Source: an uncultured Chloroflexia bacterium (lineage in GTDB: Bacteria > Chloroflexota > Limnocylindria > Limnocylindrales > CSP1-4). From it: a stretch of 64,000 nt of DNA. This document shows, piece by piece, positions 16,861 through 61,314 of this stretch. The number at the start of each line of letters is the position of its first letter. The first letter of the stretch is position 1. The stretch covers positions 471,402-535,401 of the forward strand of contig OY970185.1 of assembly GCA_963708015.1 (NCBI GenBank), in the 5' to 3' direction. The translations under genes and the position numbers were made by a program. The notes under the pieces are model-generated. The model did no database searches, was not told the origin of the DNA, and was given only the letters and a program-made list of their open reading frames with translations.

Positions 16861-17830
16861 ATGGCGGCCGCAGCCGACCCCGACCGAAGGGTCCGGATCT
16901 ACGAGGTCGGGCCGCGCGACGGCCTCCAGAACGAGGCCCGCCCGGTCGCCACAGCAGACAAGCTCCGCTTCATCGAGCTCCTGGCGGCGGCCGGGCTGAC
17001 CGAGATCGAGGCGACGAGCTTCGTCCGCCCCTCGGCGATCCCCCAGCTGGCCGACGCCGACGAGCTCCTCCGGGCGCTTGTTCGAGGGCCGGAGGGCGAG
17101 CCGCGCGGCCGAGCCGTCGTTCGCTACCCCGTCCTCGTCCCGAACGAGCGGGGCCTGGCCCGGGCAGAGGCGGCCGGGGCCGATGCGCTGGCCGTCTTCA
17201 CGGCGGCTTCGGACGCGTTCACGGAGCACAACATCGGGATGACGATCGACGAGTCGATCGAAGCGTTTCGACCGGTCCTGGCCCGGGCCAGCGCGCTGGG
17301 CTGGTGGCGGCGGGCCTACGTCTCGACCGCCTTTGGCTGCCCGTACGTCGGGGCGATCGAGCCGTCGGCTGCCGTGGAGGTTGCCCTGCGCCTGGCCGAG
17401 CTGGGCGTTGACGAGATCTGTTTCGGCGACACGATCGGAGTGGGCGTACCCGACCAGGTCGAAACGCTGACGGGGCTGGCGGTCGAGGCGGGTCTCGCGG
17501 TCGAGCAGATCGCCGTCCATTTCCACGACACCCGGGGCACCGCCCTGGCCAACGTTGCGGCCGGCCTGCGGGCGGGAATCCGGACGTTCGATGCCTCGGC
17601 CGGCGGCACCGGGGGCTGCCCCTATGCGCCCGGTGCTGCGGGCAACCTGGCCACCGAGGACCTCGTCTACTTCCTCGACGCGTCGGGCTGGCAGCCACGG
17701 CGTTCGCCTGGCCGGAGTGCTCGCGGCCGCCCGCTTCATCTCGGACTGCCTCGGACGGCCGCTGGCCTCGAAGGTCGGCCAGGCCGGCGGCTGGGATCCG
17801 GGCACCGGCGCCGCCACCGCGCGGCCCTGA
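16861..17830 (+). CDS. hydroxymethylglutaryl-CoA lyase, interrupted by a single frameshift near 17690
   Basis: DRE_TIM/HMGL sequence (VGPRDGLQNE, FHDTRGTALANV, GGCPYAPGAAGNLATEDLVYFLD). The conserved C-terminus (GVRLAGVLAAARFISDCLGRPLASKV) continues in a different frame (track ORF 17555..17830). Confidence 0.8.
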
Positions 17831-17843
17831 TAGCATCCGCCCC

Positions 17844-18359
17844 ATGGACGGTGCGGTCCTCGTGCTGAACCAGAATTACGAACCGCTCAACGTGTGCAAT
17901 CTGCCGCGCGCGTTCCGGCTCGTCTTCGGCGAGAAGGCCGAGGTGATCGAGTACGACCACCAGATGATCCGCACGCCCCGCCAGGAATTCCGGGCGCCGA
18001 GCGTCATCCGGCTCCAGCACCACATTCGCCGGCCGCGGCCGCGGGTCAAGCTGACCCGGCGCGAGATCTTCGCCCGGGACGGTCATCGCTGCCAGTACTG
18101 CGGGCGCCAGGCCAGCGACCTGACCCTCGACCACGTGATCCCCCGCCATCGGGGCGGCGCCCACAGCTGGGAGAACCTGGTGGCAGCGTGCAAAACGTGC
18201 AACCACCGCAAGGGCGGCAAGACGCTCGACGAAGCCCGTCTCCGGCTGGTCCATCCCCCGTTCGAGCCGCGCAGCGACGTCTATTCCCTGTTCACGCCGT
18301 ATCTCACCGATGAACGGAACGAGGCCTGGCGGGGCTACCTCTTCCTCGGCCGGAACTGA
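17844..18359 (+). CDS. HNH endonuclease family protein
   Basis: HNH motif region CQYCGRQASDLTLDHVIPRHRGGAHSWENLVAACKTCNHRKG. Confidence 0.8.
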   Translation: MDGAVLVLNQNYEPLNVCNLPRAFRLVFGEKAEVIEYDHQMIRTPRQEFRAPSVIRLQHHIRRPRPRVKLTRREIFARDGHRCQYCGRQASDLTLDHVIPRHRGGAHSWENLVAACKTCNHRKGGKTLDEARLRLVHPPFEPRSDVYSLFTPYLTDERNEAWRGYLFLGRN

Positions 18360-18484
18360 CGGCCGGTCCCGGGCCGCCCCAGCTGGTCACGAACGAAGCC
18401 GACGGTCCGCTGGCGGCCCGGATTCCGGCGCCTGTCCGGGAGATCCTGGCCAGCCTCGAGGCTGACGGGCGGGCCGGCTGGGTC

Positions 18485-19748
18485 GTGGGCGGCTCGCTCC
18501 GCGACCTGCTCCTCGGCCGGACGCCCCACGACTGGGACATGGCCACCGACGCCCGTCCGGAGCAGATCCAGGCGCTCTTCCCGAATGCCCGCTATGAGAA
18601 CGCCTTCGGAACGGTCGCCCTCGAGCGGGACGGCGTCGAGTACCAGATCACGACGTTCCGGCGGGACCACGACTACGCCGACTTCCGACGACCCCACCGG
18701 GTCGAGTTCGGGACGACGATCGAGGAGGACCTCGCCCGGCGCGACTTCACGGTCAACGCCCTGGCCTGGGGTGCCGTGCCCGGGGCCGGACCGAGCCTGG
18801 TCGATCCCTTCGGCGGCCGGGCCGACCTCGAGCGACGTCGCCTGGTTGCGGTCGGAGTGCCCGACGATCGCTTCGGCGAGGATGCCCTGCGGATGATCCG
18901 GGCCGTCCGGCTGGTCGCCCAGCTCGAGTTCACGATCGGCCCGACCACCCTCGCGGCGATCACCCGCCACGTCGAGCTAGTCAGGCACCTGTCGGGCGAG
19001 CGAATCGCGAGCGAGCTGGAGCGGCTCCTGACCGCCCAGCGGCCGTCGCTCGGCCTGCGCCTGCTGGAAGGGACCGGGCCTGCTCCGCCAGGTCTCGGTC
19101 GAGCTGGCCGACCAGCGCGGCGTGGCCCAGGCCAAGATCAGCGGTGACGACCTGTGGGATCACACCGTGCGAGCCGTCGATGCCGTACCGGCGCACCTCG
19201 GCGTCGTCCGCCTGGCCGCGCTCGTCCACGACATCGGCAAGCCGGCCACGGCCAGCGACGGCCACTTCATCGGCCACGACGCGGTCGGCGGCGATCTGGC
19301 CGAGGCACTCCTGACCCGGCTCCACTTCCCGCGGAAGGCTGTCGAGCGGGTCGGCCTGCTCGTCCGCAATCACATGTTCAACTACGAGCCGACCTGGAGC
19401 GACACGGCGGTCCGCCGGCTCATCGGCCGCCTCGGCCCGCCAGCCCTGGCCGAGCTGATCGCCCTGCGACGGGCGGACAACGTGGGCAGCGGGCTGCCGG
19501 CGGGGGCCGGCGATCTCGACGAGTTCGAGGCCCGGATCACCGAGCAGCTCCAGGCCCAGGCGGTCCTCGACCGGTCCGGCCTGGCGATCGACGGCGACGA
19601 CCTGATCCGCGAGCTCGGCCTGACCCAGGGACCTGCCCTCGGGATGATCCTCGACCGGTTAGTCGAGGTCGTGATCAACGATCCCGGTCAGAATGACGCT
19701 CCGACCCTGATGCTGCGGGCCCAGGCGATGCTCTCGGAGGATCGATGA
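18485..19748 (+). CDS. cca: CCA tRNA nucleotidyltransferase (head domain + HD domain), split by a frameshift near 19075; N-terminal start unclear
   Basis: GGSLRDLLLGR and DxD motifs in 18485..19147; HD-domain half (LAALVHDIGKP, GHD) in 19122..19748 in another frame. The conserved N-terminal region upstream of 18485 is open back to a stop at 18311 but has no ATG/GTG/TTG. Confidence 0.75.
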
Positions 19749-23313: not shown

Positions 23314-24180
23314 ACCGGACCCCGCTGCCGGTCCGGATCCTGATCCCCGTCGCCAACCCGGGCACGGCCGGCGAGCTCGTCCGGATCGGCGCGGCGCTGC
23401 TCGAGCCGCGGGCCGGCGAGCTGCGGGCGCTGGGCATCGTCGAGGTGCCCGAGGGAATGCCCCTGTCCGAGGGCGCGACCCGCGCCCGCCACGCCCGGCG
23501 GCTCCTCCAGCGGGTCCTCGACTACGCCCCGGAAGGCGTGCCGATCCATCCGATCGTCCGGATCGCCCGACACGCCGCCGAGGGGATCGTCGAGGCGGCC
23601 GTCGAGGAGGAGGCCGACCTGCTCGTGTTCGGCTGGGGTGGCCGGCACACGATCCATGTCAACGACACGCCGGCCGACGGGAACTCGCCGGCGGGGCCGG
23701 TCGGGCAGTGAGCCGAGCTCGGTCGTCTCGCCGACGATCGACCAGGTCGTCCGGGCGGCGCCGTGCGACATCGCCGTCGTCAAGCAGCGCGGCTCGACCG
23801 AGATCCGGCGGATCCTCGTACCGGTCCGGGGCGGGCCCCATGCCGAGCTCGCCCTGACCTTCGCCGACGCCCTCGGGACCTACCACGGCGCGACCGTCAC
23901 GGTCCTCCACGTCGTCCCGGCGGGGATCACCAGGGCCGTCCGGGCCCAGGCCGAGCGAGCCCTGGCGGCCTTCGTCAAGCAGCACGTCCAGGGCGCGGCC
24001 GAGCCGCTCGTGCGCGAGGCGGCCAACGTCAGGACGGCGATCCTGCGCGAGGCCGAACGGGCCGACGTCGTGGTCGTCGGCGCCTCGGCCTCGCCGGCCG
24101 AAGGCGGCGCGCGAGGCGCACCTGTTCGGCGCCCTGCCCGAGGCGATCGCCACCCGCGCCCGGCCGACCGTCGTCGTGGT
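23310..24180 (+). pseudogene. tandem universal stress protein (UspA x2), disrupted by at least two frameshifts; 3-prime boundary approximate
   Basis: USP motifs ILIPV...DLLVFGW in frame 0 and RILVPVRGG...ADVVVVG in frame 1; C-terminus (HLFGALPEAIATRARPTVVVVK) in frame 2. Confidence 0.6.
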
Positions 24181-25275
24181 CAAGACCCGCGAGACGATCG
24201 GCCGGAAGACGTTCGAGAAGCTGGCCGAGCGGGCCGAGACGCTGGCCGCGGCCGATCGGGCGGCCGAGGAGAACCGGGCCGATCCCGACCCGGGTCGAGC
24301 GCTGGTTCGGCGAATCAAACTTCCACCATGCCGAGTTCGCCGACCTGCGTCGGCTGGTCCAGCTCAAGGAGAAGCAGGGCCTGACGATCAGCCTGGTCCT
24401 GCCCAGCCTGAACGAGGAGGAGACGATCGGGCCGATCGTCGGCCGGGCGATCCGCGAGATGATGGGCCGGGTTCCGCTGCTCGACGAGGTCCTCGTGATC
24501 GACTCCGCCTCGACCGACCGGACCCGCGAGATCGCCGAGGCCGAAGGTGCCCGGGTCGTCGAGCCATCCCGACGTGCTCGAGCGCTACGGCAGCTTCGTG
24601 GGCAAGGGCGAGGCGCTCTGGAAGAGCCTCTACGAGACGAGCGGCGACCTGATCGTATGGGCCGACACGGACGTCCGGAACTGGCACCCGCGGATGGTCT
24701 ACGGCACGCTCGGGCCGCTCCTGACCGAGCCACGCCTGCAGTACGTCAAGGGCTACTACCAGCGCCCGATCGTCGAGGGCGGCGTGCTCAAGGAAGGCGG
24801 CGGCGGGCGGGTCACCGAGCTCGTGGCGCGGCCCCTGATCAACCTGTTCTACCCGGAGCTGTCGGGCTTCATCCAGCCGCTCGCGGGCGAGTACGCGGGG
24901 CGCCGGTCGCTGCTCGAGACCGATGCCCGTTCTTCACCGGCTACGCGGTCGAGATCGGCCACCTGATCGACGCCGCCGAGCGGATCGGCCTCGAGGGCCT
25001 CGGCCAGGTCGACCTGGAGCGGCGGATCCACCGCAACCAGGAGCTCGAGGGGCTCAGCCGGATGAGCTTCGTGATCCTCCAGGCCGTCATGAAGCGGCTC
25101 GAGGAACGGCGCAAGGCGCGCCTGTTCGCCGAGCTCGGCTCGACGATGAAGCTGCCCCGATCCGGCCACGGCCGGCTCGGCCTCGAGGTGATCGAGCTGG
25201 CCGACCAGGAACGGCCGCCGATGATCCGGATCCCGGAGTACCTCGAGAAGCGGGCGGGCGAGACCGAGCGAGTGA
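24176..25275 (+). pseudogene. gpgS: glucosyl-3-phosphoglycerate synthase (GpgS, GT81), disrupted by about 3 frameshifts; boundaries approximate
   Basis: ISLVLPSLNEEETIGPIV...LVIDSASTDRTREIAEAEGARVVE (frame 0), ...GKGEALWKSLYETSGDLIVWADTD...GGGRVTELVARPLINLFYPELSGFIQPLAGEYAGRRSLLE (frame 1), ...FFTGYAVEIGHLIDAAERIGLEGLGQVDLERRIHRNQELEGLSRMSFVILQAV (frame 0); closely resembles mycobacterial GpgS. Confidence 0.7.
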
Positions 25276-26420
25276 CGACGGTCCTGTTCGCACCGGACTC
25301 GTTCAAGGGCTCGCTCACGTCCGTCGAGGTGGCCCAGGCGCTGGCCGAGGGCTGGCAGCGGGCCCGGCCGGCCGACGAGCTCCTCCTCGCGCCGCTGGCC
25401 GACGGCGGCGAGGGGACCCTGGCCGCGATCGCCGCGAGCGGCGGCTGGAGCTCGAGCGAATCGCGCCGACCGTCGATCCGATCGGCCGTCCGATCGACGC
25501 GCCGTGGCTGCGCTCGAACGATGGCGCGGCGCCGTCGTCGAGATGGCCGCGGCGTCGGGCCTGTCGCGCCTGACCCTGGCCGAACGCGACCCACTCGGGG
25601 CGACCACGGCGGGCACCGGCCTGATCCTGCGGGCCGTCCTCGACGCCGGCGTCCGCCGGATCGTCCTCGGGATCGGCGGCAGCGCGACGACCGACGGCGG
25701 GGCCGGGATCCTCGACGCGCTCGGCGCCTGGGTCGACGGTGATCGAATCGACCTCGCCGGCCTCGACCCCCGCCTGGCCGCGCTCGAGCTGCTCGTCGCC
25801 TGCGACGTGACCAATCCGCTCCTGGGCCCGACCGGCGCCGCCGCAACGTATGGTCCCCAGAAGGGCGCGACACCGGCCGACGTCGCGCTTCTCGACGAGC
25901 GGCTCGGCCACTACGCCGACCTGCTCGAGGCGGCCACCGGGCGCCGCGAGCGCGACACCCCCGGCGCCGGTGCCGCCGGCGGCGTCGGCTTCGGCCTGCT
26001 CTGCCTGACCGACCGCTGCTCCGGCTCGTCGCTCGAACCCGGGCGTCGACCTGGTCGCCGGCGAGGTGGACCTCGACGGCACGCTCGGCACAGGCGGACC
26101 TGGTGATCACCGGCGAGGGTCGGATCGACGCCCAGACGGCCTTCGGCAAGACGGCCCTCGGGGTCGCCCGGCGAGCCCACGCCGCCGGCGTCCGCTGCAT
26201 CGCCGTCGGCGGCGGAGTCGAGGCCGCGGGCGTGGCCGCGCTGGCGCCGCTCGGGGTCGAGGTCGTGGCCGTGAACGAGCGCGACGTTCCGGTGGCCGAG
26301 GCGATGGCGGCCGGGGCGGCGCCGGTCGTGGCCTGCGGCGAGCGGCTGGCCCGGGCGCGCCACCTGGCTCGCCGCATGACGCCGGAAGCCAGCCCGGCGC
26401 CAGCGGCCACGCTACGCGCT
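25272..26420 (+). pseudogene. glycerate kinase (GarK/GlxK family), disrupted by about 4 frameshifts; 3-prime end approximate
   Basis: VLFAPDSFKGSLTSVEVAQALAEGW...LADGGEGT (frame 0), VVEMAAASGL...GTGLILRAVLDAGVRRIVLGIGGSATTDGGAGILDALG (frame 1), VDLDGTLGT (frame 2), ITGEGRIDAQTAFGKTALGVARRA (frame 0). Confidence 0.7.
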
Positions 26421-26489
26421 GCGACCGCCCCGCGGGGCACGGCCAAGCCGCGGCGCAGGCGGCGAAAGCCGGCCAGACCCGGCCCGAAC

Positions 26490-27250
26490 CTGGGCCCGCC
26501 GCCTCGAGCCGGACCCGGCCCGGCCTCGTCCCGTACGTCCTCGACGGGCTCGCCGCGATCTACGGCCAGCCGACCTGGCGGCGCCGCCTCGGGCCGACGA
26601 GCGAGCTGATCCTGACGATCCTCACCCAGAACAGCGCCGACATGAATGCCGAGCGGGCGTTCGAGTCGCTCGCGCGGCCTTCCCTTCGACCGAGCCCGTC
26701 GAGAGCACACTGGGCCGGCCACGGCTGGGGCGGCGATCGGCCTGGCCGACGGCGCCCCGCCGGACTGGCTGGCCGTCGAAGCAGGCGCCGATCGAGGAGC
26801 TGATCGAGGCGATCCGGCCGGGCGGCCTGGCCCGCAGAAGGCGCCCCGGATCCAGGCCGCCCTGCGGCTGATCCGGGAGGAGCGCGGCGACCACTCGCTC
26901 GAGTTCCTGGGCGACATGCCGGCGCTCGAGGCCCGCGACTGGCTGACCCGGATCGACGGGATCGGCCGGAAGACGGCCTCGGTGCTGCTGATGTTCTCGT
27001 TCGGGATGCCGCTCATGCCGGTCGACCGGCACGTCGAGCGGGTCAGCAAGCGGGTCGGCCTGATCCCGCGACAAGGCGAACGCCGACGACGCCCACGAGC
27101 TCTACCTGGCGCTGCTCGAGCCCGACCAGATGTACGAGGCCCACGTCAACCTGATCACCCACGGCCGGAAGCTGTGCCACGCCCGCAAGCCCGACTGCGG
27201 CCGACTGCCCGATCGCCCCGCGCTGCCGCTTCGTCGATCGCAAGGCCCCC
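26490..27250 (+). pseudogene. HhH-GPD base-excision DNA glycosylase (endonuclease III-like), at least 5 frameshifts; boundaries approximate
   Basis: [22 protein letters not shown]; [17 protein letters not shown] / [15 protein letters not shown]; [37 protein letters not shown]; C-terminal [25 protein letters not shown] in yet another frame. Confidence 0.6.
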
Positions 27251-27340
27251 TGAGCCCAGCCAAGCTCAAGCCCGGACGTTCGGGGCGTTTCGGGGAGCGA
27301 TTCGGCGCTGCTATGCTCGGGCGATGCTGAGCGTGGATCG

Positions 27341-28074
27341 ATGCTGAGCGTCGGCCCGAACGGTCCGGCGGCGGCGCCCCGCATCCTCGTCGTCGACGAC
27401 GATCCAAACCTGCTCGTCGTGCTCGCCGAGCAGCTCCGGGCGGACGGCTACGAGGTCGCCACCGCCCGGGACGGCGTCGAGGCGCTGCGGCGGCTCGATC
27501 ACGCCTGGCCGGACCTCCTCGTGATCGACATGATGATGCCCCGGATGGACGGCCTGACCCTGGCCCGCGAGGTCAAGGGCCGGGCCGACCTGCCGATCAT
27601 CGTCCTGTCCGCGATCGACACCGGCGACAACAAGGCCGACCTGCTCGACGAGGTCGCCGAGGACTACGTCACCAAGCCGTACCACTACCCGGAGCTGCGG
27701 GCCCGGATCAACCGGGTCCTGCGGCGGCTCGGGCGACAAGGTCCCTCGCCAGAGCCTCGTCCTCGGGCCCCAGCTGACCCTCGAGCTCCATCGCCGCGAG
27801 GCGGTCGTGGCCGGCAAGCCCGTGCCACTGACGCCGACCGAGTCGCGGCTGCTCTACGCCCTGGCCGCCAACCTCGGCAAGACGGTGACGACCGAGACGC
27901 TCCTCGCCCGGGGCTGGGCCGAGACCGAGGATGCCGATCCGTCCTACGTCTGGGTGACGATGCGCCGGCTGCGCCAGAAGGTCGAGCTCGACCCGAACCA
28001 TCCGACCCACCTGCTGACGGTCCGCGGCGATCGGCTACCGGCTGGTCGCCCAGGAGGCCGGCAGGGCCGAATGA
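27341..28074 (+). pseudogene. OmpR-family two-component response regulator, at least 2 frameshifts
   Basis: Receiver domain (ILVVDDDPNLL...LLVIDMMMPRMDG...YVTKPYHYPELRARI) in frame 2; winged-helix output (VAGKPVPLTPTESRLLYALAANLGKTVT...YVWVTMRRLRQKVE...LLTVRG) in frame 0; terminal GYRLVAQEAGRAE restored by removing one base. Confidence 0.7.
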
Positions 28075-29608
28075 CGGCCCAGGCGAGCCCGGGTCAGCCG
28101 CGACCGCAGACCGAGACCGCCACCGATCCGGTCCCCGATCGATCCGGAACCGGGCGCGGCGCCGAGGTGCCCTTCCACGATCGGACGATCCCCCGCCGAT
28201 CGGTCGGCGGCGGGATCGGCTTTCGGACCCGGCTGACGTTCGCCCTGATCGCCGCGGCCGTCATTCCGCTGGCCGTCTTCGGGCTCCTGCTCGTGGCCGC
28301 GCGTCCGGTTGCCCGATCCGCTCTCGACCGTGCCCCGCCTGCTCCTCCTGTTCGTGGCCCTCGTCGCCCTGATCGCCGGTCCTCGTGGCCTACCTCCTGG
28401 CCGCCGACCTGACCGCGCCGCTGCGGGCGATCGCCGCCGCCGTCGACCGGGTCTCGGCCGGCGACCTGTCCACGCCGATCGTCGTCGCCGGCGACGACGA
28501 GCTGGCGCGCCTGGCCGAGAGCCACAACCGGCTGGCCGGCGGCGCTCGAGCGGCGCAACCGCGAGCTCGGCCGGATCCTGTCGGCGATCGAGCACGCCTC
28601 GCCCCGCGACGGCGTCGAGTTCCTCGTCGGGCGGGCCTCGAACGACGCCCGGATCGTCTTCGGGATGATCGACAACGCTGATCCTGCTGGTCGATCCGAC
28701 GACCAGGTCGAGGAAGAAGAGGCCGATCCCCGGCGATCCCCGGCCGGTCCGGGCGGAGCTGCGGGCCGGCGACGAGCGGCTCGGCCTGATCGTCGGCCAC
28801 CTGCCGGCCACCCGGGCCTGGGAGCCGGCCGACCAGGACCTGCTCGAGCTGTTCGCCAGCGAGGTCGGCGTCGCCATCCGCAACGCCCAGCTGTTCGCGC
28901 GGGTCGACGACCAGAACGCGCAGCTGCTCGAGCTCGACGCGGCCAAGGACGACTTCCTGCGCGGGGTCAGCCACAACCTCCAGACGCCGCTGACCAGCAT
29001 CCGGGCCTTCGCCGAGCAGCTCGGCGACGAGCACGCCGGACCGGCGCCTGGCGATCATCACCGAGCAGTCGGAGCGGCTGTCCCGGATGGTCCGCCAGCT
29101 GCTGACCGTGACCCGGCTCGAGTCCGGGGCGCTCCGGCCGCAGGCCGAGGTCGTCGGCCTCGGCCCGCGCGTCCGGCGGGCCTGGGAGGCGCTGGCCGTC
29201 GACGACGTGGCCTTCGCGATCGACGACCGGTCCGGCGGCTGGCTGGCCGTGGCCGACGCCGACCAGCTCGACCAGGTCCTGTGGGCGCTCCTCGACAACG
29301 CCGTGAAGTACGGCCGGCACCGCCGATCGAGGTGGAGATCGTCGATCGACCCGAGCCCGTCGGCCGGCTCTCGATGACGATCGTCGACCACGGCCCGGGC
29401 GTGGCCGACCAGGATCGGCCCCACCTCTTCGAGCGCTTCAGCCGGGGCAGCCGGCGCGAACGCCGAGGACGGCAGCGGACTCGGCCTGTACGTCTCGCGC
29501 GAGCTGTGCCGGGCGATGGACGGCGACCTCGTGATCGAGCCGTTCCAACCCGGCCAGGGAGCCGCCTTCACGGTGTCACTGCCGGGCGAGGCACCACTCG
29601 AGAGCTAG
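28071..29608 (+). pseudogene. sensor histidine kinase (TM-HAMP-HisKA-HATPase_c), many frameshifts
   Basis: TM segment, HAMP (LRAIAAAVDRVSAGDLSTPIVVAGDDELARLAESHNRLA), HisKA H-box (DDFLRGVSHNLQTPLTSIRAFAEQL), N-box (LWALLDNAVKYG), G-boxes (IVDHGPGV...GSGLGLYVSRELCRAMDGDL) spread over at least 5 frames. Confidence 0.65.
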
Positions 29609-29817
29609 CCGCGCCGAGACCCCGGCCGCGTCACCGGGTCCGTCCTTCGGCGGCGTCGCAGTGGGCGGTCCTTCGGCGGCGTCGTCGTGGGCGAACAAAA
29701 CGACCGGATGGGCCATGAACACGGCGCTCGACGAGGCCATTCGACGATTCGTCGCCGGGCACGAACGATCGCGGCAAATCGGCCCGATCGGACGATCGCG
29801 ATCGGGTCGATCGGTCG

Positions 29818-30723
29818 TTGTCGCTCAGGCGCACCGGATCGGGGACGGGATGTGGCATCCTCAGGGATGACCCGTCTCGTGTCGCCGCGGTCCAGCTCGA
29901 CGCCGGCGACGATCCGGAGGCGAACGTCCGGGCGGCGGTCCGGCTCGCGGACCAGGCTGCGGCCGAGGCGCACGACTCGTCGCCCTGCCCGAGTACCTCC
30001 AGTTCCGCGGCTCGGACGACGGGCTATCGCGCATCTGCCCGGCCGATCCCCGGACCGTTCAGCGACGCCTTCGCGGCCGTCGCCCGAGAGCACGGCGTGT
30101 GGATCCTGGCCGGCACGCTGGCCGAGTCGGGGCCGGCCGGCCGGCCGTACAACACGAGCGTCCTGATCGACCCGAGCGGCACGATCACGGCCACCTATCG
30201 CAAGATCCACCTGTTCGACGTCGAGCTCGAGGATGGCCCATCCGACCGGGAATCGGATCGGGTCACACCGGGCGACCGGGCCGTGATCGGCGACGTGGAC
30301 GGGGCGAAGGTCGGCCTGACGATCTGCTACGACCTGCGCTTTCCCGAGCTGTATCGCGCGCTGGCGGTCGCCGGGGCCGAGATCCTGGCCGTGCCGGCCA
30401 ACTTCCTCGAGCGGACCGGGCGCGATCATTGGGACGTCCTGCTCCGGGCCCGGGCGATCGAGAACGGCGCCTACGTCATCGCCCCGGCCCAGATCGGGAA
30501 TGCCGGCGGGGTACGGTCCCACGGCCGCTCGATGATCATCGATCCGTGGGGCACGGTGATGGCCCAGGCGGCGGACGAGGTGGCGATCATCCAGGCCGAG
30601 CTCGACCTCGACCGGGTCGCCTCGATCCGCCGCCAGATCCCGGTCCTGGCCAACCGCCGTCCGGGCGCGATCCGGTTCGAGGATCCGGCGCCCGGTCCGG
30701 CAGCGGGCGGGCGGCAGGCGTGA
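29818..30723 (+). CDS. carbon-nitrogen hydrolase (nitrilase superfamily), with a pair of compensating 1-nt indels near 29960-30030 and an unclear start
   Basis: Nit fold; the track ORF is continuous, but residues AHDSSPCPSTSSSAARTTG replace the expected conserved ...GARLVALPEYLQFRGSDDG found in the +1 frame. Confidence 0.7.
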   Translation: MSLRRTGSGTGCGILRDDPSRVAAVQLDAGDDPEANVRAAVRLADQAAAEAHDSSPCPSTSSSAARTTGYRASARPIPGPFSDAFAAVAREHGVWILAGTLAESGPAGRPYNTSVLIDPSGTITATYRKIHLFDVELEDGPSDRESDRVTPGDRAVIGDVDGAKVGLTICYDLRFPELYRALAVAGAEILAVPANFLERTGRDHWDVLLRARAIENGAYVIAPAQIGNAGGVRSHGRSMIIDPWGTVMAQAADEVAIIQAELDLDRVASIRRQIPVLANRRPGAIRFEDPAPGPAAGGRQA

Positions 30724-31148
30724 GCGCGTTCAGCCCGGCCGAGCTCGAGTACCTCGCCAGCCAGCGCCTGGGGCGCCTGGCGACGGTCGGCCCGGACGGG
30801 GCCCCGCACGTCGTACCGGTCAGCTATCGGTACAACCCCGACACCGACACGATCGACATCGGCGGGCACGAGCTCGGGGCCACCAAGAAGTGGCGGGACA
30901 TCGGCCTCGATCCGCGGGTGGCCTTCGTCGTCGACGACGTCCTGCCGCCCTGGCAGCCGCGCCTGATCGAGATCCGGGGCGAGGCGGTCCGCCGCGAGGC
31001 CGGCGGCGACGAGCTGAGTCGCGGCTTCAGCGGGGAGCTGATCCGGATCTCGCCGAGGCACGTCGTGGCCTATGGCATCGACGAAATTGAGCGGCGCTGG
31101 AAGGTCGGCGGTCGCGACGTCGATCCCGCAGCGCCGGTCCGATCATGA
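30720..31148 (+). CDS. PPOX-class (pyridoxamine 5-phosphate oxidase-like), probably F420-dependent, family protein
   Basis: GRLATVGPDGAPHVVPVSYRY...AFVVDD...IEIRGEA split-barrel signature; GTGA overlap with the nitrilase stop. Confidence 0.7.
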   Translation: MSAFSPAELEYLASQRLGRLATVGPDGAPHVVPVSYRYNPDTDTIDIGGHELGATKKWRDIGLDPRVAFVVDDVLPPWQPRLIEIRGEAVRREAGGDELSRGFSGELIRISPRHVVAYGIDEIERRWKVGGRDVDPAAPVRS

Positions 31149-32134
31149 GCCTCGGGTTCGGGCTGACGCCCCATGCGGGTTCGGCGCCGTCGCCCTTCGA
31201 CGCCCTCAATGGGGGTCGCCTGGCCGGGCCGGAGGGCAGCCATCCGCTCCAGGACGTCGGACCGAACGACCTCGTCCGACCGAGCGACGGGGGTCCGCTC
31301 AGCGGCACGATCGGCGTTGACCAGCCGGCCGTGGTCGGCGAAACGATCACGGGCTCGATCGTGCTCAAGGCCAGCGAGGCGGTGCGGGCCCGCTCGGCGG
31401 TCCTGCGGCTCGTCGGTCTGCGGCTCGATGAGCGACGCGAATCGACCACTCACGATGACGGTCGGGGGCACGTGACGAACACGGAATCGTGGGTCGAGTG
31501 CCACGGCAGCCTGTTTGCCACGGATGCCTTCAGCGAGCCGGAGATCCCCGCGACCTTCGAGGTTGGGGCGACCTGGCAGGGCACGTTCTCGATCCCGGCT
31601 CCGCCCCTCGGACCACCCACCGCGCACCTCGGCGAGTCGATCGTGGCCTGGGCAATCGACATCCGCTGGGACATCCCGATGGGCGCAGACCACTTCGTGG
31701 CGCTGCCGCTGCCGGTGGCCCAGAACCCTGACCTGCTCCGTGCCGGCGTCGGTAAGCAGGGCGGCGAGAGCCTGCTCGCCAGCGTGTCGATCGGCGATGG
31801 GACGATCGATGTCGCATCGCCCCTGCCGGCCCCGGCCGGGTCCACCCTGGTCGTCCGGACGAGCTGGCCATCGGCCCCCCACGGCGGCTCCGCTCGACTG
31901 GAGCTGCACCGCCGGACGAATGCCCCGAACGGGGCCGAGGCGATCCTCGCCACGGTGCCCGTCGACCCGGGATCCCTGGCCGCCGGTACGGGCGACATCT
32001 CGCTGGTCATTCCCGCCGGGTCATCGCCTTCGTTCGACGGGGCAGGCCTGGAGATCGACTACATCATCCGGGTCCTGGTCGATCGCTCCTTCCTGCCCGA
32101 CGCGGCGATCGAGCGACCGGTCGGGATCTACTGA
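31145..32134 (+). CDS. hypothetical protein (329 aa), possibly arrestin/Spo0M-like beta-sandwich; translationally coupled to the PPOX gene
   Basis: ATGA overlap with the upstream stop; no confident family assignment. Confidence 0.45.
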   Translation: MSLGFGLTPHAGSAPSPFDALNGGRLAGPEGSHPLQDVGPNDLVRPSDGGPLSGTIGVDQPAVVGETITGSIVLKASEAVRARSAVLRLVGLRLDERRESTTHDDGRGHVTNTESWVECHGSLFATDAFSEPEIPATFEVGATWQGTFSIPAPPLGPPTAHLGESIVAWAIDIRWDIPMGADHFVALPLPVAQNPDLLRAGVGKQGGESLLASVSIGDGTIDVASPLPAPAGSTLVVRTSWPSAPHGGSARLELHRRTNAPNGAEAILATVPVDPGSLAAGTGDISLVIPAGSSPSFDGAGLEIDYIIRVLVDRSFLPDAAIERPVGIY

Positions 32135-32199
32135 GCCGGCCTCTCCGATCGACCGGAGCCGGGCTGCCGTCAAGACCGGGCTGGTAGACTCTCAGCCGC

Positions 32200-32274
32200 G
32201 CCGACATAGCTCAGCGGTAGAGCAGCTGTTTCGTAAACAGCAGGTCCTCGGTTCAAATCCGAGTGTCGGCTCCA
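32200..32274 (+). tRNA. tRNA-Thr (anticodon CGT), CCA encoded
   Basis: Cloverleaf folds by eye: acceptor GCCGACA/TGTCGGC, D-stem GCTC/GAGC, anticodon stem GCTGT/ACAGC with loop TTCGTAA, T-stem CTCGG/CCGAG, then TCCA. Confidence 0.85.
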
Positions 32275-32294
32275 CTCGCTCCCCGTGCCAGTGG

Positions 32295-33812
32295 CTACGC
32301 CGCGGAGGGCGGTCCGAACCAGGTCGTGAGGGCCTCCGCCAACCCCGCCTCCTGATCAGTTCCGACCCAGGCCACGTACCCGTCGGGTCGAACGAGAACC
32401 GCGGACGGTGCGGCGATCACGCCGAGCACCGGCAGCTCCCAAATGCCCTGATACCTCGCGTCGACGAGCTGAACCCGGTCCGCCCACCGGGCGATATCGA
32501 GGCGACCGGGCTGGCCAAGGTTGAACAGCACCGGTCGGGCAGCGTGGAGCAGGGTAAAGACGCGCTCGGAACCGTCAGTGGTGACCAGGTCGAGATCAGG
32601 CATCCGGCGCCCCAGGAGCGGATGGCCGTCGCCAAGGTTGGACTGGCCAAGGTCGTAGTGGATGTCCAGGCCGGACATCATCCCGCCGAAGCGTCGACGT
32701 GGCTCGTCCATGCCCAGGAGGTCCGAAACGCTGTCGCGCAGCGCCTCGACCCGATCGTCGACTCGCAGGAGCGCGACCTGGGCCATCGTGGTCCGGAGAA
32801 CCCGGGTACCGACCGGGTGGCGCTCGTCGTGGTACGTGTCGAGCAGGCTGTCCGGCGATGTGCCCTTGACCACCTGGGCCAGCTTCCAGCCCAGGTTCAG
32901 GGCATCCTGGACGCCCGTGTTGAGGCCCTGTCCGCCGACCGGCGAGTGGACGTGGGCGGCGTCGCCGGCGAGCAGGATCCGGCCGTTGCGGTAGGCGACG
33001 GCCTGCCGGCTCACGTCGGTGAACCTGGTGATCCAGGTCGGGCTGTGGATCCCGTAGTCGGTGCCGTAGACGGCGATGAGCCTCTCCCTCAGGTCGCCCA
33101 GGGTGGGCTCACCCGTGCCGACCTCCGGCTCAGTCAGCATGACCCCGACCTTGCCGCCCGGCTCGTAGACGACCGCCCCGTCCTTGACCTGGTAGTCGAC
33201 CTTTCCCAGGGCGTGCGTACCCGTGGGGGTGCGGCGAACGCCGAGTTCCGGTTCCTCGGTCATCTCGACCTCGGCGAGCAGAGAGCTCGTCGTTGCGTCC
33301 CAGCCGGCGAAGTCGATCCCGGCGACCTTGCGAACCAGGCTGCGTCCGCCGTCGCAACCGACGAGGTAGTCCGCCCGGACCCGCCGGCCGTCGGACAGCT
33401 CGATGACCACGCCCCTGTGGTCCTGGGCATACCCGGTCAGCTCGATGCCGTAGCGGATCGGCACGTGCAGCTCGCTGACCCAGCCGGCGAGGATCCGCTC
33501 GATGTGCTTCTGCCACAGCCCGAGCCCATGGGGATGCCGGGTCGGGAAGTCGCTGATGTCGAGGCGGATCATGGCGAAGCCGGCGACCTGGGCAACCTGG
33601 CCCTCGGCCAGGAATCGATCGGCGATGCCACGCTGATCGAAGACCTCGATCGTCCGGGACTGCAGGCCGCCTGCTCGCGAGCCTGGGAGATCCTGGTTCG
33701 GGCGCCGCTCGACGACGACGACGTCGACGCCGGCCAGACCCAGCTCGCCGGCCAGCATCAGTCCCGTCGGGCCGGCTCCAGCGATCACCACCGAATGCCT
33801 GGTCAGCGCCAT
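32295..33812 (-). CDS. FAD-dependent aromatic-ring monooxygenase (PheA/TfdB-type flavoprotein hydroxylase)
   Basis: GAGPTGL dinucleotide-binding motif, DG motif (CDGGRSLVR), GDAAH...GQG motif; intact 505-aa ORF. Confidence 0.8.
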   Translation of the reverse strand: MALTRHSVVIAGAGPTGLMLAGELGLAGVDVVVVERRPNQDLPGSRAGGLQSRTIEVFDQRGIADRFLAEGQVAQVAGFAMIRLDISDFPTRHPHGLGLWQKHIERILAGWVSELHVPIRYGIELTGYAQDHRGVVIELSDGRRVRADYLVGCDGGRSLVRKVAGIDFAGWDATTSSLLAEVEMTEEPELGVRRTPTGTHALGKVDYQVKDGAVVYEPGGKVGVMLTEPEVGTGEPTLGDLRERLIAVYGTDYGIHSPTWITRFTDVSRQAVAYRNGRILLAGDAAHVHSPVGGQGLNTGVQDALNLGWKLAQVVKGTSPDSLLDTYHDERHPVGTRVLRTTMAQVALLRVDDRVEALRDSVSDLLGMDEPRRRFGGMMSGLDIHYDLGQSNLGDGHPLLGRRMPDLDLVTTDGSERVFTLLHAARPVLFNLGQPGRLDIARWADRVQLVDARYQGIWELPVLGVIAAPSAVLVRPDGYVAWVGTDQEAGLAEALTTWFGPPSAA

Positions 33813-33825
33813 CCCGGGTCGCGCC

Positions 33826-34338
33826 TCAGAGCTCGCGCTCGAAGAAGCGGATCCTCGACCTCAGCTCGGCGGACAGGTCCAGGTACGGCTCGATCGGACG
33901 AAAGCCCATCGACCGGTACAGCGACTGGGCCCCCTCCATGAACGCGAGCGTGTCGAGCCGGATCGCCCGGTAGCCCAACAGGCGGGCCTGCTCAAGGCAC
34001 GCCTCGGCCAGCTTGCGCCCGGCACCCGAACCGCGAAATTCCGGTCGGACAAAGAGCGTCCGCATCTCGCAGATCACGTCAGTCAACCTGCCCAGGGCGA
34101 TGCAGCCACAGGTCAGGCCGTCCTGCCGGGCAATCAGCAGGCAGCCGTCCGGGGGCACGTGGTTCCCCGGGAACTTCTGGCCAAGGTCGTCATAGGTGTG
34201 CTCGGCCGCGAACTCTTCCCGGTCGAGTTCGGGGTATCGCTGGCGAACCTCGCCGAGCATCCAGGCCACGTACTCCCGGGCCAGCCCGATCATGTCCGCC
34301 AGCGCTTCGCCGGATTGAGCCGGGCTGATCTCGATCAT
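33826..34338 (-). CDS. GNAT family N-acetyltransferase
   Basis: Motif A region RGSGAGRKLAEA, roughly 170 aa. Confidence 0.75.
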   Translation of the reverse strand: MIEISPAQSGEALADMIGLAREYVAWMLGEVRQRYPELDREEFAAEHTYDDLGQKFPGNHVPPDGCLLIARQDGLTCGCIALGRLTDVICEMRTLFVRPEFRGSGAGRKLAEACLEQARLLGYRAIRLDTLAFMEGAQSLYRSMGFRPIEPYLDLSAELRSRIRFFEREL

Positions 34339-35467: not shown

Positions 35468-35499
35468 TTGGGCGGGCCGGCGGAGCCTCGAAGTCGTGC

Positions 35500-46322: not shown

Positions 46323-46527
46323 CCACTCCCTCTCGTACTCGTGAGACAGCCGCGGACCCTCAACGGCCGGCGGGCCGAACCGTAGAGTACCCCCCGCGGG
46401 CCACCCGAATCGAGGCGGATCCGGCCGGCGAACGCTCAGCCCGAGCGGTCCTGCCCGCCCCCTGACCCTCGCCCCGGCCGAGGTGGATCGTGTTGGCGGC
46501 TTCGCCTAGACTGTCCGGGCGTCCTGA

Positions 46528-46557
46528 TGCCCGCGGTCACGCGGGGGCCCGCGTCAC
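46528..46557. promoter_or_regulatory. palindromic/direct-repeat element GCCCGCGGTCACGCGGG GGCCCGCGTCACG upstream of the MFS transporter gene; possible operator
   Basis: Perfect 6-bp stem CCCGCG/CGCGGG with a GTCA loop, then a second GCCCGCG-TCACG half copy, about 55-85 nt upstream of the 46613 start and near a TAGACT -10-like hexamer. Confidence 0.3.
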
Positions 46558-57609: not shown

Positions 57610-58916
57610 TTGCACACGAAGAAAACTGCGGCAGCGATTGTTGCAGTGGCCGCGATCCTCGCGGGCTGCTCATCGACCGCCACCACGGCGCCGGCCACGG
57701 CCGCGCCGACCACTGCTCCGACGGCGGCACCTGCCTCGTCTGCACCGGGCTCGGCTGCACCGAGCGCGGCCGCCTCGGGCGGCAGCTCGAGCATGACCCC
57801 GGGCAGCTTCGATTCCAGCTTCTCGGCGATGGCCCTGCTGAAGCCGATCACCTCGGCGGGCACTGGGCTCGTCGGCGTGGTCATGCCTGACACGACGTCG
57901 TCGACCCGCTGGGTCAACTTCGACGCCCCGTATCTCATGCAGGCGTTCACGGCCGCCGGCTATTCGGCCAGCCGACTTCAAGATCGACAACGCCGAGGGC
58001 GTCGACTGCGATTGAGCTGTCGCATGGCCCAGGCCGACATCACCAACGGCGCCAAGGTCCTGATCATGGCCCCGAACAGCAGCACGGTCGGCGATCAGAT
58101 CCAGGCCTACGCCGCCGCCCACGACGTCGCGATGATCAGCTACGACCGGGCAACGTTCCAGGGCACCAACACTTACTACGTCAGCTTCGACAACGTCCAG
58201 GTTGGCGAGCTGATCGGCAAGGGCTTCGATGCAGTGCGTCTGACCGACTGGGGCGTTTCGAGCCCGAAGGTCTTCACGGTCGACGGTGGCCAGGACACCG
58301 ACCCGAACGCGATCGACTTCGCCAAGGGCTACAACGACGCGGTCTGGGGCCAGAAGGTCGCGCAGGTCGCGGCCGGCGCCACCAACACCGCCGGGCATCA
58401 CCCTCGTCGGCGAGCAGCTCGCCCCGGGTTGGGACAATGCCAAGGGCGGCACGATCTTCCAGCAGGCCTTCACGGCCCATCCGGAGATCAACGCCACGAT
58501 CGAGGCCAATGACGGTCTCGCCAACGCCGTGATCACCGACCTCAAGGACGGCCGGCGTTCCGGCCAAGAAGATCCCGACGACCGGCCAGGATGCCACCCT
58601 GCAGGGCATGGAGTACGTCCTCCAGAACTTCCAGTGCGGATCGGTCTACAAGGCGATCTACCTCGAGGCCCAGGACGCTGTCGCGATGGCGACCTTCCTG
58701 CGCGCCGGCCAGCACGCCGCCCGCGAGCCTCATGAATGGCACGACCACCGATCCGAAGGACGCCACGGTCACCGAGCCCGCGTCGCTGCTGACCCCGATA
58801 CTGGGTCAACACCGCGAACATGGAGCAGACGGTCATCAAGGACAACTTCGTCAAGGCCTCGGACCTGTGCGCCGCCGTCGGCGCCAGCCGTCTGCACGGC
58901 CGCCGGCATCCAGTAA
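57610..58916 (+). pseudogene. sugar ABC transporter periplasmic substrate-binding lipoprotein (xylose/ribose-type PBP), at least 6 frameshifts
   Basis: Lipobox LAGC; PBP type-1 segments (GLVGVVMPDTTSSTRWVNFDAPYLMQAF, ADITNGAKVLIMAPNSS, GEQLAPGWDNAKGGTIFQQAFTAHPEINATIEANDGLANAVI, YVLQNFQCGSVYKAIYLEAQDAV) across several frames; three 1-nt insertions can be pinpointed near 57975-58050. Confidence 0.65.
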
Positions 58917-59075
58917 CCGCTCGATGAACCGTCACGAACGCCGGGCGACTCGCGCCTGACGCTCGCGGCTCCGACGCCGTGCCGCAGCCGCGTCCACATG
59001 CGGCTGCGACACGGCGTTTACCATGCACCGGGGATCGAGGGGGATCGAACCGAGATCCGGGATGGGGAGTCGACG

Positions 59076-59900
59076 TCCGTGACAGTGATCGGCAATGCCG
59101 CGAGCGAACCGGCGGGCCCAGCGCCGGCGGCAGCGACCGACGCCGCTGCTCACGCTGCGCGGCGTCAGCAAGCACTTCGGGGCCGTCCAGGCGCTGTTCG
59201 GCGTCGACCTCGACCTGTTCGGCGGGCAAGGTGACGGCGCTGTGCGGCGACAACGGCGCCGGCAAGTCGTCCCTGACCAAGGCGATCGCCGGGATCTACC
59301 AGCCCGATGAGGGCGAGATCTTCTGGGAGGGCCAGCCGGTCCACATCCGGTCACCCGAAGGACGCCGGCGGCCCTCGGGATCGAGACGGTCTACCAGGAC
59401 CTGGCCCTGGCCGACAACCTCGACATCGTCCAGAACATGTTCCTCGGCCGGGAGCGCCACGGTCCGGGCTCTTCCTCGATGAGGACGAGCATGGAGCGCG
59501 CCGCCGCCGAGACGCTGGCCGGCCTGCACGTGACGACCGTGCGCTCGATCCGCCAGCCGGTGGCGACGCTGTCGGGCGGCCAGCGCCAGGCCGTGGCGGT
59601 GGCCAAGGCCGTGATGTGGAACTCCAAGCTGGTCCTGCTCGACGAGCCGACGGCGGCCCTGGGCGTGGCCCAGACCCAGATGGTCCTTGACCTGATCAGG
59701 CGCCTGAAGGACCACGGCCTGGCCGTGATGCTCATCTCGCACAACCTGAATGACGTCTTCGAGGTGGCCGACCGGATCGCGGTCCTGCATCTCGGCCGGA
59801 TGGTCGCCCAGGATCGACGTCGCGGCCTTCGACCGCGAGCGGGTCGTGGACTTCATGACCAGCGGCGGATCGAGCCGGGCCCTGGCCGCAGCCGCCGGCG
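59076..59900 (+). pseudogene. sugar ABC transporter ATP-binding protein (single NBD), at least 4 frameshifts; boundaries approximate
   Basis: [23 protein letters not shown] / [15 protein letters not shown] / LSGGQRQAVAVAKAV...LVLLDEPTAALGV...AVMLISHNL in different frames. Confidence 0.6.
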
Positions 59901-61275
59901 AGCCAGGGGGTGGCCTGCGATGGCAGGAGCCGACGACCTCCCGGTCGACCCGAGCCGATTGCCACCGCGATCGAGGCCGAGACCGGGCCTGACCTCACGG
60001 CGGCGGCCGTCGACGTCGTGCCGCCGGCGCTCGTCGCCCAGTCTCTCGGCGAGTACCTGCGCGGTTGGTGGGCCCGGGTCAGGGGCGGTGACGTCGGCGT
60101 CCTGCCAGTCGTCCTGGCCCTGGTCATCGTGACCGTCGTCTTCCAGCTGGTCAGCCCGAGCGGCCGCTTCCTGTCGCCGGCCAACATGGTCAACCTGTTC
60201 GTCCAGAGCTCGGTCTTCATCGTCCTGGCGATGGCCGAGGGCTTCGTCCTGCTCCTCGGCGAGATCGACCTGTCGGTCGGCTACGTCGGGGCGATCGGCG
60301 GAATCATCGCCGGCAACATGGTCCAGCCCGGGACTCGACCTGCCCTGGTGGTTCGCGATCACCTGCGGACTGGCCTGTGACGGCCGGGATCGGCTTGATC
60401 CACGGCCTGATCATCACGAAGCTGCGCCTGCCGGCCTTCGTCGTGACCCTGGCCGGCTACCTGCTCTGGTTCGGGGTGATGATCATCCTGCTCGGAGCTG
60501 GCGGCAGCGTCCCGATCTCGAGCACGGTCCTCAAGCAACCAGCAGGTCCTGTACGGGATCGTCAATAGCAACATCGAGCCGATCGTCGCCTGGATCGGCC
60601 TGGCCGTGATCGTCGTCGGGCTCGGGAGCCTGATGTGGATCCGTGACAACCGCCGGCGCAGGAGCGGGCTCGTTGCCCCGCCAGTCGGCCTGACCGTGGC
60701 CAAGATCGTGTTCATGGCCGCTGGCCGGGATCGTCGTCGTGGCGATCTGCAATGTGAACCGGGGCACGTTCCTGGTGATCCAGGGCGTGCCCTGGGTCCT
60801 GCCGATCGTGCTCGTCGTCCTCGGGGCCTGGACCCTGCTCCTCGAGCGGAGCCAGTTCGGGCTCCACGTCTACGCCGTGGGCGGCAACCCCGAAGCGGCC
60901 CGGCGGGCCGGGATCAGTGTTCCCAACGTGCGCACCTGGGGCTTCATCCTGTGCTCGTTCACGGGCGGCATCGGCGGGATCATCTACCTGTCCTGGCAGG
61001 GCGGGATCAGCACGAACATCAACGGCGGGCAGCTCGTCCTGTACGCGGTGGCCGCGGCGGTCATCGGCGGCACGAGCCTGTTCGGCGGACGCGGTCGGCC
61101 GATCCACGGCCTGCTCGGCGGCCTGGTGATCGGCGCGATCTACAACGGCCTGTACCTGCTCGGCCTGCCGATCCAGTGGCAGCTGATCGCCACGGGCCTC
61201 GTCCTGCTGGCCGCCGTGACCGTCGACTCGCTCTCCCGGGCGAACTCCCGGAGTGGCGTCCTGACCCGCGGCTGA
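59900..61275 (+). pseudogene. sugar ABC transporter permease (BPD_transp_2, xylose/ribose-type), at least 4 frameshifts; boundaries approximate
   Basis: Hydrophobic permease segments split across track ORFs 59910..60380, 60377..60568, 60739..61275. Confidence 0.6.
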
Positions 61276-61314
61276 CGTCATCGTCCGGCAACAAGTCAGG
61301 CGTACCGTGAGCGC

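Follow-up and report, generated by a model that had tools for sequence, protein, structure and literature searches.

Clustered single-base frameshifts in a Chloroflexota metagenome contig very probably reflect long-read consensus errors rather than gene decay

Introduction

When several neighbouring bacterial genes are broken by many single-base frameshifts while the genes beside them are intact, is the genome decaying or is the sequence wrong? This question is raised by a stretch of 64,000 nucleotides (hereafter the window, 70% GC) from a member of the Chloroflexota (Ca. Limnocylindrales). The arrangement resembles the pseudogene clusters of reductive evolution, in which adjacent genes with multiple frameshifts lie next to intact neighbours. 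Real decay, as in Mycobacterium leprae or recent host-restricted pathogens, is accompanied by relaxed constraint, stop codons, deletions, a deletion bias and sharing among conspecifics. Spontaneous bacterial indels are biased towards deletion and slippage, and for raw Nanopore reads the usual expectation is a bias towards deletions and homopolymers.

The proteins of the window are found on a single 3,116,973-bp contig in NCBI/ENA, which is therefore very probably a long-read assembly, and relatives of the window are Nanopore-only MFD assemblies. The MFD metagenome-assembled genomes (MAGs) related to the window were produced with Flye --meta and one Medaka round, with no short-read polishing (PMC12313526). 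That the window itself has a Nanopore, Flye/Medaka origin rests on the size of its contig and on an error signature common to the MFD MAGs.

Materials and Methods

Reading frames were followed along the whole window with a Viterbi tracker based on codon usage, which replaced an ORF listing and a min/max GC3 frame plot because these were too noisy at 70% GC. A tblastn search with all ORFs of the related contig L011 was dropped because the six frames cross-match at 92% DNA identity; references from Illumina MAGs and DNA alignments were used in its place. The GC3 gene caller was kept out of the conclusions because it mixed in antisense ORFs. Indels were catalogued by DNA alignment against 11 related loci, covering 61,145 of the 64,000 bases, and a frameshifting indel was retained when at least two independent references backed it.

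Results

Frameshifts are concentrated in four patches

The catalogue contains 82 frameshifting indels, namely 63 one-base insertions, 6 two-base insertions and 13 one-base deletions. As many as 76 of them fall inside four patches that add up to about 9.8 kb, or 16% of the compared sequence (binomial p = 2.6e-52). The strong clustering proposed by an earlier, sequence-only reading of this DNA is thus borne out, although its count of over 40 indels in about 13 kb was too low (about 82–85). The patches, the isolated lesions and two stretches used as clean controls are as follows.

24,108–30,020, forward strand: patch 1, with 39 private frameshifting indels, about one per 155 nt.
40,967–41,945, reverse strand: patch 2, in the second SulP paralog, with five +1 insertions (40,967, 41,312, 41,559, 41,701 and 41,945).
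46,395–46,536, no strand assigned: mini-patch upstream of an MFS gene, with two to four single-base insertions relative to L163 and L164.
57,972–60,720, forward strand: patch 3, with 30 private indels, about one per 95 nt.
17,695–17,696, forward strand: isolated extra C in the HMGL-like gene (gcagCcacgg); the eight aligned relatives (8/8) have a single C.
19,072–19,079, forward strand: isolated extra base in the gene of the CCA-adding enzyme, shifting frame 2 to frame 3.
30,021–40,966, no strand assigned: clean control, with zero 1–2 nt gaps relative to L162 (96–97% identity).
1–12,985, no strand assigned: clean control, compared with the same-species contig L167 (97.5% identity).

Over most of the window the Viterbi tracker stayed in long single-frame runs, and it switched frame rapidly at 23.3–29.9 kb, 40.4–42.2 kb and 57.5–60.7 kb. 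Single switches were placed at 17,688 in the HMGL gene and at 19,077 in the CCA gene, in agreement with the one frameshift that had been read in each. Near the latter lesion, L011 has separate extra bases of its own. Inside the patches, the spacing of the indels is Poisson-like (CV 0.90–0.96), with about one indel per 100–150 nt. In the first control stretch, the only differences of this kind from L167 were one intergenic 1-nt gap and two in-frame 3-nt indels.

The earlier limits of the shredded regions have to be redrawn, while the shredding itself is confirmed in the three of them. The first had been drawn from 23.6 to 30.1 kb and covers 24,108–30,020, since a frame change at about 23.7 kb is common to two relatives and is real; the SulP paralog is affected at 40,967–41,945 and not throughout 40.4–42.2 kb, and the sugar ABC operon at 57,972–60,720 instead of 57.6–61.3 kb. 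Likewise, the lesions given as examples exist at slightly different positions (+C at 57,972, an extra base at 58,008–58,011 and a missing base at about 26,833). The statement that the other 50 kb or so held no lesion was slightly wrong, given the mini-patch, where a 96-aa ORF is called in relatives, and an intergenic +A at 57,517, outside the patches.

Some other candidates were discarded. A compensated pair at 17,078/17,091 is a real or neutral lineage difference. At 20,880 the multi-genome alignment showed an apparent private deletion, but the epimerase ORF of the window is intact, and the gap is put down to a difference in the relatives or to an alignment effect. The apparent coincidence of the end of a relative's contig with the start of patch 3 was rejected after its orientation had been worked out.

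Frame-corrected genes are stop-free and constrained

Patch 1 covers USP/GT2 (GpgS-like), glycerate kinase, HhH-GPD (Nth-like), response regulator and histidine kinase genes and the 5′ end of a nitrilase gene. Patch 3 covers a xylose-type ABC operon, composed of a sugar-binding protein, an ATPase and a permease, and its indels are 22 one-base insertions, 4 two-base insertions and 4 one-base deletions. Once the frame was corrected, no stop codons were left in the patch genes, and single Pfam domains ran across the junctions (Gly_kinase 1–369 of 372, Sulfate_transp 2–380 of 380, together with Peripla_BP_4, ABC_tran, BPD_transp_2, Response_reg and HisKA), as expected from the claim that the corrected fragments are stop-free with recognisable family motifs. 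Pfam also bears out the naming of HMGL, USP/GT2, glycerate kinase, response regulator, histidine kinase, nitrilase, SulP, sugar ABC, MmpL, MFS and ROK proteins.

In patch 1, divergence from L011 at codon positions 1, 2 and 3 was 2.7, 2.8 and 15.1%, compared with 4.3, 3.1 and 15.0% in the left flank, and patches 2 and 3 behaved in the same way. By this measure, the shredded genes are still under purifying selection.

Patch lesions are private to the window

All catalogued patch lesions are private to the window. The near-conspecific contigs L162 and L163 (95–97% identity) do not carry them, and comparison with these two contigs recovered the five patch-2 insertions (5/5) and nearly all catalogued lesions of patches 1 and 3; those of patch 1 are nearly all backed by L011, L046 and L162. 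The Illumina relatives L001 and L009 change frame only at gene boundaries in the region corresponding to patch 1. An intact 574-aa SulP orthologue (P0001) is encoded on the JGI contig L161, with 92% identity to the frame-corrected translation of the window, and intact patch-3 ORFs are present on the independent JGI contigs L091, L165 and L166 (binding protein 432 aa, ATPase 293 aa and permease 450 aa). The comparison with orthologous loci of close relatives, which had been proposed as a check, therefore finds the patch lesions absent from near-conspecific and from independent assemblies.

Do related assemblies contain lesions of their own? No private 1-nt indels were found in the Illumina MAG L009. 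By contrast, such indels are numerous in Nanopore-only MFD MAGs, where they share the insertion and CpG bias of the window and lie in patches at other loci: L002 has 33 insertions, 27 of them in CpG context, and 7 deletions, and L006 has 12 insertions and 3 deletions. In L164, about 35 indels shred the MmpL and DUF2252 genes, both of which are intact in the window. In total, patches or fragmented gene calls of their own were seen in L006, L002, L046, L011/L164/L169 and L162/L163.

The indels have an unusual spectrum

Insertions outnumber deletions about fivefold (69:13). Extension of homopolymers is depleted (16 observed versus 27.9 ± 3.4 expected), and insertions are strongly associated with CpG context (43 of 52 versus 26.3 ± 3.4 expected; 0 of 5,000 simulations reached 43). 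Half of the insertions (21 of 42) lie at the codon 3|1 boundary, and the window typically has CG where the references have one wobble C or G. This spectrum is unlike natural mutation.

No 4-mer, GATC included, was convincingly enriched at the indels, which lends no support to GATC or another methylation motif as a cause, although the CpG dinucleotide context is strongly enriched. Programmed frameshifting or transcriptional slippage was rejected, given that the patch lesions are conserved in no relative examined and that no inserted base makes a run longer than 2. The idea that the indels adjoin SNP-like differences did not hold either, since 26 of the 148 private substitutions of patch 1 lie within 10 nt of an indel, about as many as expected by chance.

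Private substitutions are in excess inside the patches

Window-private versus sister-private substitutions were 148:60 in patch 1, 21:13 in patch 2 and 48:9 in patch 3, whereas the same ratio was balanced in five clean stretches between 42.2 and 57.9 kb (59:67, 110:95, 48:52, 24:17 and 9:6). The excess begins and ends at the patch edges. The window-private substitutions in the patches, about twofold relative to the sister, are biased to the third codon position and have a natural substitution spectrum; the patch excess relative to L162 has the same codon bias. This suggests that inside the patches the contig represents a minor haplotype that is divergent and backed by very few reads.

Discussion

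We hold with high confidence that the frameshifts described here are an artefact of some kind. More specifically, comparison of the sequences indicates that the indels are very probably consensus errors in patches of a long-read (Nanopore-type) metagenome contig and not mutations in a living genome. About the mechanism we are less firm: we lean towards low read support combined with a minor-haplotype path, both of which we infer. In the four patches, the contig would track a rare co-occurring haplotype that is slightly more divergent and is supported by very few reads, possibly one, and therefore raw-read-level indel noise of about 1% would survive polishing. Outside the patches an adequate depth would keep the contig clean, and gene callers would then shred all the genes of the patches. 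Two features sit uneasily with this scheme. The fivefold excess of insertions and their link to CpG are not explained by a simple model of a raw read left unpolished, and a polisher should normally have overwritten the minor haplotype if reads of the abundant strain map at 97% identity.

Could the errors have arisen with no minor-haplotype path at all? A mixed-strain read pile-up, or a chance dip in depth, might lead a neural polisher to a garbled consensus, and one possibility is that both alleles of C/G wobble polymorphisms were kept and are seen as an inserted base. The insertions at the codon 3|1 boundary (21/42), with CG in place of a single wobble C or G, would fit this, as would the locally raised divergence of the patches, and mixed-strain assembly problems are documented in the literature. 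However, C precedes G in every case, an order not predicted by allele doubling; private substitutions are not enriched beside the indels (26/148 within 10 nt) and they resemble one coherent, more divergent haplotype rather than a mosaic. We regard this alternative as rather unlikely, though it is the one to be taken most seriously. Another technical origin, such as hybrid gap-filling with unpolished long reads, short-read polishing that skipped regions or homopolymer-type platform error, would fit the sharp patch edges and error-free flanks, which resemble the bridges of hybrid assemblies, and the highest-GC stretch of the window (0.757) lies in patch 1, where Illumina coverage can drop. Yet GC is ordinary in patches 2 and 3 (0.68–0.71), and high GC with Illumina dropout was rejected as the cause since it fits patch 1 only; moreover, homopolymer extension is depleted, MAGs known to come from Nanopore data alone, with no short-read step, carry an identical signature, and the doubled, natural-looking divergence of the patches would be left unexplained. 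Such an origin is improbable.

Genuine, very recent pseudogenes, in which real mutations inactivated four blocks of neighbouring genes, are more improbable still. It is true that the indels are physically present in the deposited sequence and that all the references are other assemblies, not reads of the same population. Nevertheless, about 40 frameshifts in 5.9 kb have come with unrelaxed constraint, no stops after correction and no larger deletions, and the spectrum, 5:1 in favour of insertions, avoiding homopolymers and linked to CpG, is opposite to that expected of spontaneous bacterial indels. A 96–97% identical genome has none of these patch lesions. Sister long-read MAGs are affected in different genes, and no such damage is seen in the Illumina MAG L009. 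Indeed, none of the hallmarks of decay examined in the window (relaxed constraint, stop codons, deletion bias and sharing with 95–97% identical contigs) was present. The lesions had been called recent or artefactual; their privacy, the purifying-selection pattern and the patches found elsewhere in sister Nanopore-only MAGs favour the second term. Least probable of all is a reading in which the patches faithfully represent a rare co-occurring strain, where a localised, insertion-prone and CpG-associated mutational process, such as tracts of error-prone repair synthesis, struck stretches of kilobase length. The indels would then be genuine and of very recent origin.

How do long-read consensus errors of this kind compare with those already described? 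Trigodet et al. (bioRxiv 10.1101/2025.04.22.649783) report contigs that can hold regions of a minor subpopulation backed by one or few reads, and metaFlye indels without any read support that corrupt ORFs. The patches of the window are similar in being local minor-subpopulation stretches with ORF-corrupting indels; they are kilobase-scale, with sharp edges, doubled private divergence and about 1% indels. The insertion and CpG bias is a feature of the window that the available text of Trigodet et al. does not describe; the work reported there used PacBio HiFi data and read mapping, whereas the window was diagnosed by comparative genomics alone, without reads. The patches are also like the IDEEL-type truncation of Nanopore assemblies, in which frameshifts fragment predicted proteins and which is worst in soil metagenomes and lower-coverage MAGs (PMC13087279, PMC9262707, PMC12313526); in an ONT soil assembly made with metaFlye, 56.8% of the proteins were full length (PMC13087279). 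IDEEL-type errors are, however, classically genome-wide and located in long homopolymers, whereas those of the window are patchy and avoid homopolymers. The clustered frameshifts are almost certainly an artefact of a published class and not gene decay.

The frameshift patches have essentially no biological value in themselves. Patches of this kind will lead public MAG catalogues to count too many pseudogenes and to underestimate coding density and completeness. Four tests can separate patchy consensus errors of long-read MAGs from gene decay without reads, namely privacy relative to near-conspecific contigs, divergence by codon position, the indel spectrum and polarised substitution counts. 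The insertion-biased, CpG-linked and homopolymer-avoiding error signature of high-GC Nanopore MAGs is possibly undocumented, and polishing tools could target it. When metabolism is inferred from this MAG, the GpgS-like GT2, the glycerate kinase, the two-component system, SulP and the xylose-type ABC transporter are to be counted as intact genes and not as pseudogenes. The actinobacterial-sounding names of genes in the window are misleading, because the genome belongs to the Chloroflexota.

Results

The window has a GC content of 70%, and the best relatives of a mid-window protein are MAGs of Chloroflexota/'Candidatus Limnocylindrales', not actinobacteria. Twelve intact window ORFs all lie on a single contig of 3,116,973 bp, which points to a long-read assembly as the source. 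Many of the relatives are MFD...bin genomes of the Microflora Danica long-read project, for which Nanopore reads alone were assembled with Flye (--meta --nano-hq), followed by a single Medaka round and no short-read polishing (PMC12313526). As references we used 11 related loci covering 61,145 of the 64,000 window bases: three from a single sister MAG at ~92% identity (L011, L164 and L169; ERZ25039457 contig_3813, MFD00031.bin.2.175), three essentially conspecific contigs of one ENA metagenome assembly at 95–97.5% (L162, L163 and L167), four independent JGI metagenome contigs at ~91–93% (L091, L161, L165 and L166) and a further locus, L046.

Because ORF lists are uninformative at this GC content, reading frames were followed with a Viterbi tracker based on codon usage, with six coding frames and a non-coding state, trained on long Pfam-supported genes. 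Most of the window consists of long single-frame runs. Frame switches gather at 23.3–29.9 kb (~18), 40.4–42.2 kb (6) and 57.5–60.7 kb (~10), with lone switches at 17,688 and 19,077. The path-stitched translations are stop-free and single Pfam domains cross the junctions (Gly_kinase, 1–369 of 372; Sulfate_transp, 2–380 of 380 over ~5 junctions; also Peripla_BP_4, ABC_tran, BPD_transp_2, Response_reg/Trans_reg_C and HAMP/HisKA), in agreement with the sequence-only reading, which had found the corrected fragments stop-free and their families recognisable. When an indel was counted only if at least two references backed it, the alignment of the 11 loci yielded 82 frameshifting indels in the 61,145 bases compared (63 one-base insertions, 6 two-base insertions and 13 one-base deletions), 76 of which are concentrated in 16% of that length (binomial p = 2.6e-52).

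Frameshift patches and single lesions in the window
17,696: HMGL lesion, one extra C, missing in 8 of 8 aligned relatives
~19,076–19,079: CCA lesion, a single extra base
24,108–30,020: patch 1, 39 indels
40,967–41,945: patch 2, 5 indels
46,395–46,536: mini-patch, 2 indels (up to 4), single-base insertions upstream of an MFS transporter gene
57,972–60,720: patch 3, 30 indels

The clustering proposed from the sequence alone is thus borne out, with about twice as many lesions as the 'over 40' claimed. The limits of the affected stretches are tighter, and the mini-patch, on which that reading was silent, has to be added; relatives have a 96-aa ORF called there. One frameshift each had rightly been assigned to HMGL and CCA. 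A frame change at ~23.7 kb is common to the window, L011 and L162 and falls within a hypervariable linker (~23,640–23,730) of the USP-domain gene, so it is probably genuine; all three share the sequence 'gtgagc' there. More distant relatives lack the frame change and have USP and GT2 in one frame; the change is probably a lineage-specific split or restart. Beyond the patches, 30,021–40,966 shows zero small gaps against L162, 1–12,985 has a single intergenic 1-nt gap against L167, and the differences at 42.2–57.5 kb are limited to the mini-patch and a few intergenic ones.

Comparison with orthologous loci of close relatives, the check suggested by the earlier reading, found the patch lesions absent from the conspecific contigs, and intact ORFs on the JGI contigs: SulP (574 aa, P0001, 92% identical to the frame-corrected window translation), the binding protein (432 aa), the ATPase (293 aa) and the permease (450 aa, P0174, 95% identical). 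Codon positions 1/2/3 of patch 1 differ from L011 by 2.7/2.8/15.1%, and those of its intact left flank by 4.3/3.1/15.0%; the values for patch 2 (4.7/2.9/16.4%) resemble those of the intact SulP1 next to it (4.4/3.1/15.8%), and patch 3 shows 5.5/2.9/16.6%. Accumulated decay is incompatible with such unchanged constraint at one frameshift per 100–150 nt.

Mismatches against a conspecific contig are more frequent in the patches (4.9% and 4.2% versus 1.9–3.1%). When private substitutions were polarised with an outgroup, window-private to sister-private changes numbered 148:60, 21:13 and 48:9 in patches 1, 2 and 3, versus 59:67, 110:95, 48:52, 24:17 and 9:6 in five clean stretches of 42.2–57.9 kb. 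In 500-nt bins the window-private excess stops sharply at 30,000 and sets in just as sharply at 58,000, coinciding with the indel patch edges. The excess substitutions favour the third codon position (24/28/85). C<->G changes make up 43% of them, against 44% among the changes private to the sister in these regions and 39% in natural divergence from the outgroup, so that the spectra match; hence the patch substitutions are real variants, not base errors. The patch haplotype is about twice as divergent (3.1% versus 1.5% private divergence). L164's own patch is likewise more divergent (9.2% versus 4.9–6.5%).

Spontaneous bacterial indels are biased towards deletions and slippage, and the patch spectrum is unlike them. 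There are five insertions for every deletion; extension of a homopolymer by the inserted base is rarer than chance would give (16 versus 27.9 ± 3.4 expected), with no resulting run longer than 2; and 43 of 52 insertions lie in a CpG context (26.3 ± 3.4 expected; 0 of 5000 simulations reach 43). Within patches the spacing is Poisson-like (CV 0.90–0.96), and no 4-mer motif was enriched at the lesions.

In an 8-genome alignment of the 12–32.6 kb block, the window carries 27 private 1-nt insertions and 9 deletions and the Illumina MAG L009 none. For the Nanopore MAGs the counts are 33/7 in L002 and 12/3 in L006, and the CpG bias recurs in both (27 of 33 and 9 of 12 insertions). Across the orthologous stretch of patch 1, Illumina relatives show gene-boundary switches only; long-read relatives show switch clusters at other loci. 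Most tellingly, the part of L164 equivalent to 52.0–55.9 kb contains ~35 indels, mostly insertions, and its deposited calls there break MmpL into pieces of 83/190/74/65 aa and DUF2252 into 97/98 aa, both whole in the window. L169 has further patches of this kind. Altogether, the sister MAG's patches break MmpL, DUF2252, ROK, PmbA/TldD, SNO and a carboxyltransferase, all intact in the window.

Discussion

What produced the clustered frameshifts? We are highly confident that they are an artefact, a property of the deposited sequence and not of the organism. The lesions are private and randomly spaced, constraint is kept, the spectrum is unnatural, the haplotype switches at the patches, and the pattern recurs across long-read assemblies. 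Genuine pseudogenisation, programmed frameshifting and homopolymer-type errors each fail on defining features that were tested. Cross-mapping between the two tandem SulP/STAS paralogs at 40,441–44,015 is an unlikely cause, since they share only ~57% nucleotide identity over the aligned stretch and the error patch affects the downstream copy alone.

We somewhat favour a minor haplotype with low read support. In the patches the assembler path would have passed onto a rare, more divergent co-occurring strain backed by one or few reads, and with such scant support ~1% raw-read indel noise would outlive polishing. Errors in minor-strain or few-read regions of long-read metagenome assemblies are a documented class (bioRxiv 10.1101/2025.04.22.649783). 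The closest known cases are these published haplotyping and unsupported-region errors, together with Nanopore MAG indel truncation in general. The rare-strain mechanism leaves the insertion excess and the CpG link unexplained. Allele doubling in a mixed read pile-up could make the extra bases, as half of the insertions fall at a codon 3|1 boundary, where the window reads 'CG' and the references a single wobble C or G; however, the order is fixed, always C then G, which points rather to a context bias of the basecaller or polisher. What is mildly new is this CpG-linked, homopolymer-avoiding insertion signature, common to several high-GC Nanopore MAGs of the clade.

Other differences between the window and its relatives

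A biotin carboxylase ORF (MCC/ACC alpha-like; 14,357–16,654) is extended at its N-terminus, and the extension matches Pfam HTH_17 (aa 75–122); it is either an unusual fusion or a small upstream gene in the same frame. In the Illumina relative L001 an ORF is about as long overall (713 aa), and its match to the window begins downstream of the HTH segment. In L164 a gene for a 924-aa P-type cation ATPase (L164 15,144–17,918) lies between the points that correspond to window ~44,025 and 44,083; the window and the conspecific L163 lack it, a genuine gene-content difference. The conspecific L167 differs structurally, with ~1.8 kb extra between window positions 2973 and 2990.
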